NCBI RefSeq assembly: GCF_041248615.1
Contig: NZ_CP158426.1
DNA length: 64,000 bases
Source of the DNA: Escherichia coli
GTDB taxonomy: Bacteria > Pseudomonadota > Gammaproteobacteria > Enterobacterales > Enterobacteriaceae
Strand: one strand, 5' to 3'
This document shows positions 5,878 through 50,573 of the stretch, piece after piece. The position numbers were made by a program, and so were the translations under genes. The number at the start of each line of letters is the position of its first letter. The stretch's first letter is position 1. The notes beneath the pieces were generated by a model that worked only from the letters and a program-made list of their open reading frames with translations, searched no databases and was not told where the DNA came from.

Positions 5878-5932
5878 GGTGATGCTGCCAACTTACTGAT
5901 TTAGTGTATGATGGTGTTTTTGAGGTGCTCCA

Positions 5933-6208
5933 GTGGCTTCTGTTTCTATCAGCTGTCCCTCCTGTTCAGCTACTGACGGGGTGGTGCGTAACGGCAAAAG
6001 CACCGCCGGACATCAGCGCTATCTCTGCTCTCACTGCCGTAAAACATGGCAACTGCAGTTCACTTACACCGCTTCTCAACCCGGTACGCACCAGAAAATC
6101 ATTGATATGGCCATGAATGGCGTTGGATGCCGGGCAACCGCCCGCATTATGGGCGTTGGCCTCAACACGATTTTCCGCCATTTAAAAAACTCAGGCCGCA
6201 GTCGGTAA
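5933..6208 (+). CDS. insA: IS1 InsA (91 aa, transposition repressor / N-terminal part of the transposase)
   Basis: [43 protein letters not shown] with zinc-finger cysteines. Confidence 0.97.
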
Positions 6209-6630
6209 CCTCGCGCATACAGCCGGGCAGTGACGTCATCGTCTGCGCGGAAATGGACGAACAGTGGGGATACGTCGGGGCTAAATCGCGCCAGCGCTGG
6301 CTGTTTTACGCGTATGACAGGCTCCGGAAGACGGTTGTTGCGCACGTATTCGGTGAACGCACTATGGCGACGCTGGGGCGTCTTATGAGCCTGCTGTCAC
6401 CCTTTGACGTGGTGATATGGATGACGGATGGCTGGCCGCTGTATGAATCCCGCCTGAAGGGAAAGCTGCACGTAATCAGCAAGCGATATACGCAGCGAAT
6501 TGAGCGGCATAACCTGAATCTGAGGCAGCACCTGGCACGGCTGGGACGGAAGTCGCTGTCGTTCTCAAAATCGGTGGAGCTGCATGACAAAGTCATCGGG
6601 CATTATCTGAACATAAAACACTATCAATAA
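6127..6630 (+). CDS. insB: IS1 InsB frame (transposase C-terminal part; InsAB' is made by -1 frameshift)
   Basis: 167-aa ORF in the -1 frame overlapping the insA 3' end; slippery AAAAAAC at 6184-6190. Confidence 0.95.
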
Positions 6631-6645
6631 GTTGGAGTCATTACC

Positions 6646-7222
6646 TAATGCATTAAGTGCTGTGCGCGATGTATTGCGCGAGAACCAGGATATTTATTTA
6701 GTTAATGAAGGTGCAAATACCCTGGATAATGCACGAAATATTATTGATATGTATAAACCACGTCGCCGTCTGGATTGTGGTACCTGGGGTGTCATGGGCA
6801 TCGGTATGGGCTATGCCATCGGTGCTAGCGTGACCTCTGGTTCTCCGGTTGTCGCCATTGAAGGTGATAGTGCTTTTGGTTTCAGTGGGATGGAGATTGA
6901 AACGATTTGTCGATATAACCTGCCGGTGACGATCGTTATTTTTAATAATGGCGGCATTTACAGAGGAGACGGTGTTGATCTCAGTGGCGCTGGTGCACCA
7001 TCACCAACGGATCTGCTGCACCATGCAAGGTATGACAAATTAATGGATGCGTTTCGTGGCGTTGGCTATAACGTCACTACGACAGATGAACTTCGTCATG
7101 CTTTAACCACCGGTATTCAGTCGCGCAAACCGACCATTATTAATGTGGTCATCGACCCTGCAGCAGGAACTGAAAGTGGCCATATTACCAAACTTAACCC
7201 AAAACAAGTCGCTGGTAATTAA
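6646..7222 (+). pseudogene. oxc: oxalyl-CoA decarboxylase, 3' fragment only (C-terminal ~190 of ~564 aa)
   Basis: Frame right after the IS1 right end encodes [58 protein letters not shown]...GDSAFGFSG, a thiamine-diphosphate-binding C-terminal domain; no N-terminal or middle domain present. Confidence 0.85.
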
Positions 7223-16943: not shown

Positions 16944-18275
16944 TTATGAACGGCCTTTTGCCAGATATTGCTCCATCTCTTCTTCCGGCACCATTCCACC
17001 TCCCGTCGCCCACACCAGATGAGTGGCATTACGCAGTTGTTCTGCGCTGAAACCGTGCATCTGTTGGTAACTTACTGATGCGCACACGCGCTGAGGCCCG
17101 GCCATACCCGCCAGTGCCGAAGGTTCAAGACGAATACCTTCTTCCTGCGCCAGCCAGCCAAGCATGTCATACATGGTTTGATCGCTAAGGGTATAGAAGC
17201 CATCCAGTAGACGCTCCATTGCCCGCCCGACAAAGCCTGATGCGCGACCAACTGCAAGGCCATCCGCTGCGGTAAGGTTGTCGATACCAATATCCTGAAC
17301 AGAAATCTGATCGTGTAATCCTGTATGGACGCCTAGCAGCATACAAGGGGAGTGCGTTGGTTCGGCAAAAAAGCAGTGAACATGATCGCCAAATGCCAGT
17401 TTAAGCCCGAATGCGACGCCACCAGGACCACCGCCAACACCACACGGCAGATAGACAAACAGTGGGTTATCAGCATCGACAATACGACCTTGCTCGGCAA
17501 ATTGCGCTTTAAGACGCTGGCCTGCGACGGAATACCCAAGGAACAACGTGCGGGAATTCTCGTCATCAATAAAGAAACAGTTCGGGTCAGACTGCGCTAC
17601 TTTACGTCCTTCCTCGACGGCAACACCATAATCTTGCTCATATTCCACGACCGTAACGCCATGGCTGCGCAGTTTCGCTTTTTTCCATGCCCGGGCATCA
17701 GCAGACATATGTACTGTCACCTTAAAGCCAATGCGGGCGCTCATAATGCCGATTGATAACCCCAGATTTCCGGTTGAGCCCACAGCAATGCTGTATTGAC
17801 TAAAGAACTGTTTAAACTCCGGAGAAAGCAGTTTGCTGTAGTCATCTTCAATCGTCAGCAACCCCGCTTCCAGAGCCAGTTTTTCTGCATGTGCCAGGAC
17901 TTCATAAATCCCGCCGCGTGCTTTTATGGAGCCGGAAATGGGCAAATGGCTATCTTTTTTCAGTAGCAGTTGCCCGCTGATCGGTTGTTGATATTCCTTT
18001 TCCAGCCGTTTTTGCATAGCCGGAATGGCAACCAGTTCTGATTCAATAATCCCCCCAGTAGCAGCAGTTTCAGGAAATGCTTTTGCCAGATAGGGTGCAA
18101 AACGGGATAAGCGCGCATGGGCGTCCTGAACATCCTGTTCGGTCAGGCCAACATAAGGTAAACCTTCAGCCAATGAGGTCGTGCCAGGATTAAACCAGGT
18201 GGTTTCTTTAAGAGCAACCAGATCCTTTACCAACGGATACTGGGCGATGAGCGAGTTCATTTTAGCGTTTTCCAT
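16944..18275 (-). CDS. dsdA: D-serine ammonia-lyase (D-serine deaminase), PLP-dependent
   Basis: 443-aa [34 protein letters not shown] with PLP-lysine motif SGSIKARGG. Confidence 0.95.
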
Positions 18276-18520: not shown

Positions 18521-18753
18521 TATTTATATTTTCTTCTCCAGATTGGCGATGCCAGTTGGCATGTTTTACCTACTTGCCTACATGGTTACTCGTTGGCGAG
18601 AACAGAGGCGGAATTGGGTACAATTGTCCGGGAATTATTGTTATTTTTTATTGTATTGCCGTGTCGGGTGATAGGGCGTCGAGAATATCGTTGGATCTCG
18701 CCAGTGACGTCTGTTTCTGCTACAGTGCCCGTTTTACGGCAAACGGCTTGGGT

Positions 18754-19749
18754 ATGGCTTCATTAAAGGATGTCGCACGCCTGGCGGGAGTGTCGATGAT
18801 GACAGTCTCCCGGGTGATGCATAATGCAGAATCTGTGCGTCCTGCAACGCGTGATCGCGTATTGCAGGCAATCCAGACCCTGAATTATGTTCCTGATCTT
18901 TCCGCCCGTAAGATGCGCGCTCAAGGACGTAAGCCGTCGACTCTCGCCGTGCTGGCGCAGGACACGGCCACCACTCCTTTCTCTGTTGATATTCTGCTTG
19001 CCATTGAGCAAACCGCCAGCGAGTTCGGCTGGAATAGTTTTTTAATCAATATTTTTTCTGAAGATGACGCTGCCCGCGCGGCACGTCAGCTGCTTGCCCA
19101 CCGTCCGGATGGCATTATCTATACAACAATGGGGCTGCGACATATCACGCTGCCTGAGTCTCTGTATGGTGAAAATATTGTATTGGCGAACTGTGTGGCG
19201 GATGACCCAGCGTTACCCAGTTATATCCCTGATGATTACACTGCACAATATGAATCAACACAGCATTTGCTCGCGGCGGGCTATCGTCAACCGTTATGCT
19301 TCTGGCTACCGGAAAGTGCGTTGGCAACAGGGTATCGTCGGCAGGGATTTGAGCAGGCCTGGCGTGATGCTGGACGAGATCTGGCTGAGGTGAAACAATT
19401 TCACATGGCAACAGGTGATGATCACTACACCGATCTCGCAAGTTTACTCAATGACCACTTCAAATCTGGCAAACCAGATTTTGATGTTCTGATATGTGGT
19501 AACGATCGCGCAGCCTTTGTCGCTTATCAGGTTCTCCTGGCGAAGGGGGTACGTATCCCGCAGGATGTCGCCGTAATGGGCTTTGATAATCTGGTTGGCG
19601 TCGGGCATCTGTTTTTACCGCCGCTGACCACAATTCAGCTTCCACATGACATTATCGGGCGGGAAGCTGCATTGCATATTATTGAAGGTCGTGAAGGGGG
19701 AAGAGTGACGCGGATCCCTTGCCCGCTGTTGATCCGTTGTTCCACCTGA
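18754..19749 (+). CDS. cscR: LacI-family sucrose operon repressor CscR (331 aa)
   Basis: Product begins MASLKDVARLAGVSMMTVSRVMHN (helix-turn-helix) at the internal ATG 18754, followed by a periplasmic-binding-protein-like sugar-binding domain; the longer upstream ORF start is rejected. Confidence 0.9.
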   Translation: MASLKDVARLAGVSMMTVSRVMHNAESVRPATRDRVLQAIQTLNYVPDLSARKMRAQGRKPSTLAVLAQDTATTPFSVDILLAIEQTASEFGWNSFLINIFSEDDAARAARQLLAHRPDGIIYTTMGLRHITLPESLYGENIVLANCVADDPALPSYIPDDYTAQYESTQHLLAAGYRQPLCFWLPESALATGYRRQGFEQAWRDAGRDLAEVKQFHMATGDDHYTDLASLLNDHFKSGKPDFDVLICGNDRAAFVAYQVLLAKGVRIPQDVAVMGFDNLVGVGHLFLPPLTTIQLPHDIIGREAALHIIEGREGGRVTRIPCPLLIRCST

Positions 19750-19756
19750 TATTATG

Positions 19757-40029: not shown

Positions 40030-40550
40030 AGAAAAAGTGTGCGTTGATTTTTATCAATAGCCTACTGTTGCTGAACAGCGGCACCACAACAGCGGTAGAT
40101 AATCTGCACTTTACCGGCAATTTAATCAGTAAATCGTGTACACCAGTGATCAACGGTAGCCAGTTGGCAGAGGTACATTTTACTGCCATTGCCGCCAGCG
40201 ATTTAATGAACATTGGGCAGTCAGAGCGAGTGCCGTTGGTCATTCAATTGAAGGATTGTCAAAGTTCTACATCGCTGAGTGTCAGAGTCACGTTAACGGG
40301 AACAGAAGATAGTGAACTGCCCGGATTTCTGGCTTTTGACGCCTCGTCTTCTGCGTCCGGCGCTGGGATTGGAATTGAAACAGCGGCAGGTATACCAGTG
40401 CCAGTCAACAATACAACAGGCGTCACGCTCCCGCTGACTCAGGGAAATAACAGCCTAAATTTTAATGCCTGGTTACAGGCGAAGAGCGGGCGAAATGTAA
40501 CGTCCGGTGACTTTAACGCCACTGTGACGGCAACCTTTGAGTATTTATAA
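40026..40550 (+). CDS. yfcP: fimbrial-like minor subunit
   Basis: ATGA overlap with the yfcQ stop; signal peptide; C-terminal TFEYL. Confidence 0.85.
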   Translation: MKKKCALIFINSLLLLNSGTTTAVDNLHFTGNLISKSCTPVINGSQLAEVHFTAIAASDLMNIGQSERVPLVIQLKDCQSSTSLSVRVTLTGTEDSELPGFLAFDASSSASGAGIGIETAAGIPVPVNNTTGVTLPLTQGNNSLNFNAWLQAKSGRNVTSGDFNATVTATFEYL

Positions 40551-40551
40551 C

Positions 40552-41406
40552 ATGAAAAAATGGACCCTATTTTTCGCGAGCCTGATGCTGCTTGTCCTGA
40601 ATGTTGTCGGCACACCCAGGAGCTATGCTGGGGATAAACTTATGAGTTCAAGTTTCGACAGTGTGAGAGTTTATTATGCGATGGACACGGTAACAGGGGT
40701 GGCCGCGAGTATCGTTTTCAATGTTACGGTGTTAACACCAGGGGAGGTCGCGTATGGGAAATATAATTCTATTGGGCGTAAAGGAGATACTCTGAGGCTG
40801 ATTTCCTGGACGGGTTCGGGCCCGGCACCAACTCTGGTTATAACGGATTATGATACGATTAATAATTCACATTGCCCCGGTATTGATACGGATCTTTTCC
40901 GTTGTGCATATATGACATTTAAAGTCACCGTTGCATCTGATAATTATGGTTGCCCGTGGATCGCGTCCTTTTATTCATATACAAACTTACCCGGATATTT
41001 TGATGGAAGCTACACGAGCCCGACTGTGCATAACTCAATATGCCCAACGATACCGGTCGCCTCCTATGATATCTCCTGGAGTGAAAATTATGTCAGTCAT
41101 AATAAAGCGCTACAGCTACAGTCCACGGGGTCGACAATTACCACCACGCTTTCGACCTACCTGATGGAAAACGGCAAACTCTGTGACGGCAGCGTTTTTG
41201 ATAGTAGAGGTGCATACTGCCGTGCGGTATCAGAACTGTTAACCTTTACCTCTTATGGCTGCGACAAATCAACGGTAACGGTGACCCCCACACGTCATCC
41301 GGTAACCGATAAAGAGTTACATGATATCGTGGTGAAGGTGAATACCAGCAGTCGGCAACCGATTGATTCTACGTGTCGTTTTCAGTATGTATTGAATGAG
41401 TTATAG
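40552..41406 (+). CDS. yfcO: putative fimbrial tip adhesin-like protein
   Basis: ORF 40537-41406; start placed at MKKWTLFFASLMLLVLNVVG (signal peptide); last gene of the operon. Confidence 0.75.
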   Translation: MKKWTLFFASLMLLVLNVVGTPRSYAGDKLMSSSFDSVRVYYAMDTVTGVAASIVFNVTVLTPGEVAYGKYNSIGRKGDTLRLISWTGSGPAPTLVITDYDTINNSHCPGIDTDLFRCAYMTFKVTVASDNYGCPWIASFYSYTNLPGYFDGSYTSPTVHNSICPTIPVASYDISWSENYVSHNKALQLQSTGSTITTTLSTYLMENGKLCDGSVFDSRGAYCRAVSELLTFTSYGCDKSTVTVTPTRHPVTDKELHDIVVKVNTSSRQPIDSTCRFQYVLNEL

Positions 41407-41419
41407 CTCGTCGTTGTGC

Positions 41420-41520
41420 ACTGATGCCTGATGTGACGCCGACTGAAATGAATCACAATTTATTGAATTATCACATTTTTATCGGCCGGATAAGGCATTC
41501 ACGCCGCATCCGGCATTCGA
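41420..41520. repeat. REP/BIME repetitive extragenic palindromes
   Basis: GCCTGATGTGACGCC and GCCGGATAAGGCATTCACGCCGCATCCGGC. Confidence 0.8.
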
Positions 41521-41529
41521 TGCCAGCAT

Positions 41530-46517: not shown

Positions 46518-46796
46518 ATGATCGCGGAGTTTGAATCACGCATTCTGGCATTAATCGACGGTATGGTTGACCATGCCAGTGATGATGAGTTGTTTGCCAG
46601 TGGGTATTTGCGTGGCCACCTGACATTAGCCATCGCAGAACTGGAAAGTGGTGATGACCACTCCGCCCAGGCGGTACATACGACCGTTAGCCAGAGTCTG
46701 GAAAAAGCCATTGGTGCCGGTGAGTTGTCGCCGCGTGACCAGGCGCTGGTGACCGATATGTGGGAAAACCTGTTTCAGCAGGCGTCACAGCAGTAA
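46518..46796 (+). CDS. yfcL: small cytoplasmic protein YfcL (92 aa)
   Basis: [43 protein letters not shown]. Confidence 0.85.
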
Positions 46797-46802
46797 GTTG
46801 CG

Positions 46803-46903
<101 letters not shown>

Positions 46904-46916
46904 CTGCCAAAGCTGG

Positions 46917-48989
<2,073 letters not shown>

Positions 48990-50308: not shown

Positions 50309-50380
50309 GTAGGCCGGAGTAGGTCGGATAAGACGCGCCAGCATCGCATCCGACATTACGCGCCAATGCGGCCTCCGGCA
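50309..50380. repeat. REP/BIME elements downstream of fabB
   Basis: GTAGGCCGGAGTAGGTCGGATAAGACGCGCCAGCATCGCATCCGACA and GCGGCCTCCGGCA. Confidence 0.75.
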
Positions 50381-50390
50381 CTAACGCCAA

Positions 50391-50415
50391 AGGGAACCTG
50401 ATGGTTCCCTTTTTC
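50391..50415 (+). terminator. intrinsic terminator (fabB transcript)
   Basis: AGGGAACC-tgat-GGTTCCCT followed by TTTTC. Confidence 0.7.
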
Positions 50416-50573
50416 ACATTATTGACAATCGCCGCCTGTTCCAGGCAAACTTCCCGCTTTGTCGATTTCCTTCTGAAAAGACGTACGCGTTAAATCCTGC
50501 CAACGCACCGTAACCCTGAAACCAGAGAGATGAGACGGGGATACTCCTCGCCTTGCGCTGCATTCTGGAGTAA

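Follow-up and report, generated by a model that had tools for sequence, protein, structure and literature searches.

Genomic context of the four sites

The stretch of DNA analysed here (the window, 64 kb) is part of an Escherichia coli chromosome, as a 1-kb query around the first of the sites described below matches E. coli chromosomes. It corresponds to positions 2.42–2.46 Mb of K-12 in reversed orientation, and the closest record is NZ_LT599825.1 (isolate NRZ14408). According to annotation carried over from identical or near-identical records, the gene order comprises the yfc fimbrial operon, smrB, prmB-aroC-mepA-yfcA-epmC-yfcL, mnmC, fabB, yfcJ and flk, followed by pdxB-usg-truA-dedA, accD, folC-dedD, cvpA-purF-ubiX, argT and hisJ.

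Repetitive extragenic palindromes (REPs) are found at four sites in this region. Site 1 is located between two convergent genes annotated as a yfcO-family fimbrial adhesin and smrB, and site 2 between convergent yfcL (stop codon ending at 46796) and mnmC (stop codon at 46917–46919). Site 3 follows fabB, and site 4 is located between dedD and cvpA, where its first REP starts 9 nt downstream of the stop codon of dedD. All four sites are intergenic and just 3′ of stop codons of annotated genes, so that the REPs are transcribed into 3′ untranslated RNA. The preliminary description had placed REP clusters at these four sites, with coordinates that proved right to within a few bases, and had called them typical E. 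coli intergenic repeats. This agrees with their position between genes, with the y and z2 types of their REPs and with their organisation into bacterial interspersed mosaic elements (BIMEs). The features are listed in Table 1.

Table 1 Features at the four REP sites (positions in the window)
Site	Feature	Position	Strand	Basis or remark
1, 2	Complete REP palindromes, first three of six	41485–41514, 46819–46851, 46869–46898	−, +, −	Palindrome-aware regular expression
3, 4	Complete REP palindromes, other three of six	50323–50354, 59685–59716, 59739–59768	−, +, −	Palindrome-aware regular expression
1	Truncated z-type REP	41426–41439	+	Head arm GCCTGATGTGACGC, 1 mismatch to pattern
1	Long (L-type) linker, AT-rich	41445–41480		Recurs beside y REPs elsewhere
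1	IHF-core-like ATTCAATAAATTG in linker	41456–41468	−	Matches WATCAANNNNTTR
1	Complete y-type REP	41485–41514	−	Core search, regular expression, stem alignment
2	z2-type REP with CTAC tag	46819–46855	+	Palindrome 46819–46851, CTAC 46852–46855
2	Tail-to-tail linker ACGTCACAC, 9 nt	46856–46864		Read from sequence
2	y-type REP	46865–46898	−	GTAG 46865–46868, palindrome 46869–46898
3	Extra REP tail copy GTAGGCCGGA	50309–50318		Unit of 9–10-bp tandem repeat
3	Single complete REP	50319–50354	−	GTAG 50319–50322, palindrome 50323–50354
3	Possible decayed y REP	50360–50398	−	y half of naRNA4 model, non-canonical pairs
3	fabB intrinsic terminator AAAGGGAACC/GGTTCCCTTT, then T-run	50389–50417	+	Separate from the REP
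4	z2-type REP with CTAC tag	59685–59720	+	Palindrome 59685–59716, CTAC 59717–59720
4	Tail-to-tail linker ACAGGGGTAGAACC, 14 nt	59721–59734		Read from sequence
4	y-type REP	59735–59768	−	GTAG 59735–59738, palindrome 59739–59768
4	91-bp BIME-2 unit, present or absent among strains	59688–59778		Strain comparison
4	Intrinsic terminator after the dedD BIME, GATGGCGTTGAA...TTCAGCGCCATT, then T-run	59804–59838	+	Hairpin 59804–59833

Identification of the REP units

The REP types (y, z1 and z2) and the BIME definitions used throughout are those of PMC3333891. Searches with REP consensus patterns, the check that had been proposed for these sites, gave motif counts well above chance. When one mismatch is allowed, the 26-nt y-type core CGGATAAGGCGTTCACGCCGCATCCG has three matches in the window (41487–41512, 46871–46896 and 59741–59766) and none in 100 shuffles. 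The REP head-arm pattern has 13 matches in the window against 3.76 ± 1.85 expected, and nine of the 13 fall at the four sites. The other matches, at 17406, 40580, 47872 and 57782, have no palindromic partner and were rejected as chance occurrences; three of them lie inside genes. By a palindrome-aware regular expression, the number of complete REPs in the 64 kb is exactly six; each of them belongs to one of the four sites, and the rest of the window has no complete REP palindrome.

When the six REPs are aligned from their GTAG ends, they share an 11-pair stem. Three of the stem pairs are kept through two-sided changes (C:G to U:A, G:C to U:A and G:C to A:U), and an internal mismatch of two bases (columns 12–13 and 29–30, AA opposite GC) is left unpaired in all six. 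The tetranucleotide GTAG stands 5′ of the palindrome foot in five REPs, the exception being the y REP of site 1, which carries ATCG instead (41481–41484). Each of the six units is an imperfect palindrome of 30–40 nt with a y or z consensus, as in E. coli REPs (palindromic units). Compared with shuffled sequences, the RNA folds are far more stable at site 2 (z = −6.4 on the plus strand and −5.3 on the minus strand), site 3 (z = −5.1) and site 4 (z = −4.8), and marginally so at site 1 (z = −2.4), where the hairpin of the y REP is nevertheless seen in the folds of both strands. The high copy number of REPs is also apparent, as an 85-nt query hits at least 25–66 places per genome among the matches listed.

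These observations leave us nearly certain that the four sites carry standard E. coli REP sequences organised as BIMEs. The finding as a whole is already known, REP and BIME repeats having long been described in E. coli.

Organisation of the individual sites

The preliminary description had reported paired REP units at all four sites. REP sequence is indeed present at each of them, but true pairs are found at sites 2 and 4 only. By their sequence, both of these are single BIME-2 units, in which a z2 REP and an inverted y REP are arranged tail to tail across a short linker. They resemble published BIME-2 elements in this composition, in their linkers of 9 and 14 nt, in the GTAG/CTAC tags and in the stem mismatch. 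They differ in that each site of the window has one unit and not a tandem array; the variable tandem number of BIME-2 elements is found at site 4 when strains are compared. The BIME-2 pair architecture is not found at sites 1 and 3.

Site 3 consists of one complete REP and a 10-bp duplicate of its GTAG tail. The inner stem and loop of this REP are z2-like and its outer positions y-like, and it aligns to the z2 half of the Rfam family naRNA4. An outer inverted repeat (50306–50316/50369–50379) and an alignment to the y half of naRNA4 hint at a decayed second REP, which would be arranged head to head with the intact one and would overlap the stem of the fabB terminator. On this weak evidence, the segment may be a REP remnant; it is too thin to treat site 3 as a true REP pair, and that assignment was rejected. 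Site 3 is thus best described as a REP standing alone, the tail of which has undergone a small tandem duplication. The duplicated element belongs to a minisatellite of 9–10 bp (AGTAGGTCGG / AGTAGTCGG), in which the GTAG tail of the REP is combined with the first part of its stem (50309–50322 in the window).

Site 1 contains one complete REP, 15 nt from the smrB stop codon, and a 14-nt head arm of a second. The 3′ arm and the CTAC tag of this left REP are missing; a search for the inverted partner of the head arm at the site found none. Together with the long linker, the y REP forms a dispersed repeat with copies at fliC-fliA, tyrB-alr, mtlA-mtlD and nadR-ettA in other genomes, at 82–88% identity. 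Each aligned copy of the linker is arranged in the same way: a REP, the conserved linker of about 35 nt and an inverted y REP. The left REP is complete in the intact alleles of JSWP006 and 141, where it is z2-like and not z1. Compared with the full left palindrome of JSWP006, the allele of the window is 17 bp shorter, the missing segment being the 3′ arm and the CTAC tag.

Site 1 therefore fits neither BIME-1, because of its z2-like left REP, nor BIME-2, because of its long linker. It resembles BIME-1 elements (RIB/RIP) in having a conserved long linker and a y REP, in its single copy and in its location between convergent 3′ ends, and its linker aligns with those at mtlA-mtlD and fliC-fliA. 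In the latter two elements the left REP is z1-type, so that site 1, with its z2-like left REP, is a chimera, which in the window is further altered by the loss of half of the left REP and by a y REP without GTAG. The z1 + y composition of BIME-1 is not found here; the composition is that of a truncated z2 REP, an L linker and a y REP, and by the published scheme (PMC3333891) site 1 is an atypical BIME, z2-L-y.

The AT-rich linker of site 1 includes a sequence similar to the core of the integration host factor (IHF) site. The IHF core consensus is WATCAANNNNTTR. The linker sequence ATTCAATAAATTG agrees with it at eight of nine specified positions, and matches of at least this quality occur about once per kb with both strands combined. 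None of the IHF-core-like positions (T, C, A, A...T, T, G) varies among the eight linker copies that were aligned. A single core match being weak, it is this conservation across copies that points to a putative IHF-type site in the L linker.

Variation among strains

All four sites vary among E. coli strains. The 17-bp deletion at site 1 is present with the same junction in 138 of 5,426 complete genomes. In K-12, the intergenic region between the two genes is 70 bp long and has unrelated sequence with a different hairpin, because the yfcO allele differs; published K-12 binding data therefore cannot apply to this site. The yfcO-family adhesin allele and the intergenic region downstream of it (40537–41529) are strongly polymorphic in general, and the segment 41000–42000 is covered to at least 80% in only 1,332 of 5,424 genomes.

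Site 2 is present in its full form in 4,763 of 5,425 genomes. Strain CFSAN061763, which differs from the window at sites 2 to 4, lacks 65 bp that hold the z2 REP of site 2. Downstream of fabB, the GTAG-tail minisatellite of site 3 ranges from one to four tandem copies among strains; it could have arisen by slippage or by transposase action.

The most extensive series of alleles was observed at site 4, where a unit of 91 bp is present once in the window and in K-12, twice in A36 and four times in SSGNw2. The site is empty in CFSAN061763, in which ACGGTCTTGCC is followed directly by CGATGCC. A query containing the unit, which makes up 27% of the query, is covered to at least 80% in 4,081 of 5,425 genomes. 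The pentanucleotide TTGCC borders the unit on both sides (59683–59687 and 59774–59778) and is found at every unit junction of the two-copy allele of A36 and the four-copy allele of SSGNw2. Because of this 5-bp repeat, the boundary of the polymorphic segment is ambiguous. Directly to the right of the unit, at 59779–59800, lies CGATGCCGCAAAGGCAT, which looks like a degenerate head arm of a REP and folds into a small hairpin (ATGCC/GGCAT). The empty-site allele has this sequence too, and it could be what is left of an older REP and have acted as the point of insertion or recombination.

Variability among strains has been described for BIME-2 elements and atypical BIMEs (PMC3333891), and the variation at the four sites is of this known kind and thus nothing new. 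It accounts for length differences that appear when this region is aligned across E. coli genomes, namely the 91-bp unit between dedD and cvpA, the loss of the z2 REP between yfcL and mnmC, the minisatellite of the REP tail after fabB and the decaying element between yfcO and smrB. The four sites provide a compact and clear illustration of BIME dynamics as already known, and their importance is mainly that of a negative result.

Alternative interpretations of the palindromes

Repeats of this kind can be taken for the ends of conventional mobile elements, that is, for terminal inverted repeats of an insertion sequence or a MITE. The absence of the 91-bp segment of site 4 from some strains could be read in this way, with the 5-bp direct repeat TTGCC resembling a target-site duplication, and REP pairs are indeed regarded as non-autonomous mobile DNA (REPINs) (PMC3337134, PMC3116915). 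However, TTGCC belongs to the consensus of the REP head (TGCC^TGAT), and since it recurs at each unit junction of the multicopy alleles, it marks the register of the repeat and not a target duplication. The units are hairpins of 30–40 nt and not terminal inverted repeats around a cargo, and neither between the arms nor next to them is there any coding capacity; cargo and transposase are both lacking. The true insertion sequence of the window, an IS1 copy at 5878–6648, looks quite different. We regard an origin as conventional mobile-element ends as extremely unlikely.

A role of the palindromes as Rho-independent terminators of yfcO/smrB, yfcL/mnmC, fabB and dedD would be in keeping with GC-rich hairpins that directly follow stop codons, at sites 1 and 2 between convergent genes, and an attenuation of transcription by BIMEs has been reported (Espeli et al. 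2001, as cited in PMC5082802). Yet none of the REP hairpins is followed by a T-run, and a terminator scan calls none of them an intrinsic terminator. The same scan called a separate hairpin located between the dedD BIME and cvpA (59804–59833), and fabB has a terminator of its own, with a perfect 10-bp inverted repeat (50389–50412) that appears as a hairpin in the fold and is immediately followed by a T-run. As sites 3 and 4 have these canonical terminators downstream, their REPs are not needed for termination. REP sequences are, moreover, dispersed repeats and not locus-specific hairpins, and the terminator interpretation appears improbable. As a further alternative, one or more of the sites might encode a small nucleoid-associated RNA of the naRNA4 (REP325) type, which bridges DNA cruciforms together with HU. 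naRNA4 (RF02564) is the sole Rfam family matched at any of the sites; it shares the y and z2 hairpins, both of which are said to be needed (PMC4550694) and both of which are supplied by sites 2 and 4. Matches to it were found at all four sites, at site 3 over the full 77-nt model. None of them reaches the gathering score of 59.5, the best being that of site 3 with 49.7 bits and the others lying at 25–44 bits, and they reflect shared REP sequence only; at gathering thresholds, the Rfam search of the window returned only a tRNA and no curated RNA family at the four sites. Further differences are the orientation of the REPs, which are tail to tail at sites 2 and 4 and head to head through an 'l' linker in naRNA4, the degenerate y half at site 3 with its non-canonical pairs, and the lack of a tandem array of six units. 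The elements are also absent from many strains, which counts against an RNA of this type, and we consider it very improbable that any of the sites encodes one.

We therefore retain the assignment of the four sites to REPs organised as BIMEs. In annotation, such palindromes should not be flagged as insertion sequence or prophage ends, as CRISPR-like repeats or as novel RNA genes.

Possible functions of the REPs

While our own observations concern the sequence, palindromic structure, family membership, position and inter-strain variation of the elements, the functional roles considered here are those likely to apply at these loci by analogy with published work on the family. Roles reported for REPs include IHF and gyrase binding, mRNA stabilisation and termination (PMC3333891, PMC2817692). 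When located in 3′ untranslated RNA, REPs hinder 3′-to-5′ exonucleases, which stabilises the message upstream of them; they are also able to attenuate transcription (PMC3333891, PMC5082802). By analogy, the RNA hairpins at the four sites may slow such exonucleases and thereby stabilise the upstream messages. Gyrase cleavage in vivo is enriched in BIME-2 elements, mostly at y REPs and independently of transcription (PMC6379681), and the y REPs of sites 2 and 4 would accordingly be preferred sites of DNA gyrase. The linker of BIME-1 elements binds IHF (PMC2817692, PMC3333891), as might the L linker of site 1.

According to Liang et al. 2015 (as cited in PMC5082802), ribosomes stall at REPs located no more than 15 nt from a stop codon, and trans-translation is triggered. 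Only site 4, at 9 nt from dedD, is clearly within this distance, and its REP might stall terminating ribosomes and so lower expression. Many strains lack the element of site 4 or the z2 half of site 2, and any local function of these elements is therefore dispensable.

A possible contribution of the REP-associated transposase

Changes in copy number and the gain or loss of units may proceed through recombination between units or through the REP-associated Y1 transposase (TnpA-REP, or RAYT), which needs GTAG as well as the mismatch within the stem. In vitro, binding and cleavage by TnpA-REP depend on the tag and on an intact stem (PMC3333891). The inverted REP doublets of the window resemble REPIN/RAYT systems in having both the tag and the mismatch. 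They differ in that the 64-kb window contains no RAYT gene; the cognate gene reported for E. coli K-12 is yafM (PMC2817692, PMC3333891).

In one placement, the left junction of the site-4 polymorphism reads TGCC^TGAT, which is the type I iREP cleavage site of TnpA-REP in vitro (PMC3333891). The right junction has C followed by C, whereas cleavage needs C followed by T. Given this right junction and the ambiguous boundary, a transposase origin of the difference between the empty and the single-copy allele is only a possibility. In this lineage, site 1 has lost one half of its left REP through a 17-bp deletion and also the GTAG of its y REP; both are features that TnpA-REP needs, and the copy of the window thus looks inert and decaying.

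Taken together, the series of alleles with zero, one, two and four units at site 4 could document, in natural strains, how a whole BIME was excised, inserted and amplified by RAYT, and the site-1 allele may show how a BIME decays once the transposase no longer recognises it. We put this joint reading forward as a speculative one that is, on present observations, rather unlikely to be correct. If it were true, mapping the site-4 alleles over a tree of more than 5,000 genomes could provide the first in vivo rates of gain and loss.

Other variable segments of the window

The IS1 copy mentioned above interrupts oxc. Its left end is joined directly to ypdI sequence in the window (CATGCCATAATAG followed by GGTGATGCTGCC), and in NZ_LT599825.1, which is otherwise identical, the same IS1 end is joined to the 5′ part of oxc. 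At this point the window is 3,671 bp shorter than NZ_LT599825.1 and lacks yfdX, frc and the 5′ part of oxc, a difference that looks like an IS1-adjacent deletion.

A sucrose-utilisation cluster extends over about 18750–24154 and contains genes for a LacI-family regulator, CscA, a kinase and an MFS permease. It adjoins tRNA-Arg(CCU) (24080–24154), beside a truncated dsdX and dsdA. CFSAN061763, which also differs from the window upstream of the tRNA, carries at the same tRNA-Arg(CCU) a P22-like prophage that includes an O-antigen glucosylation cassette. The differing cargo identifies this tRNA as a variable integration hotspot.
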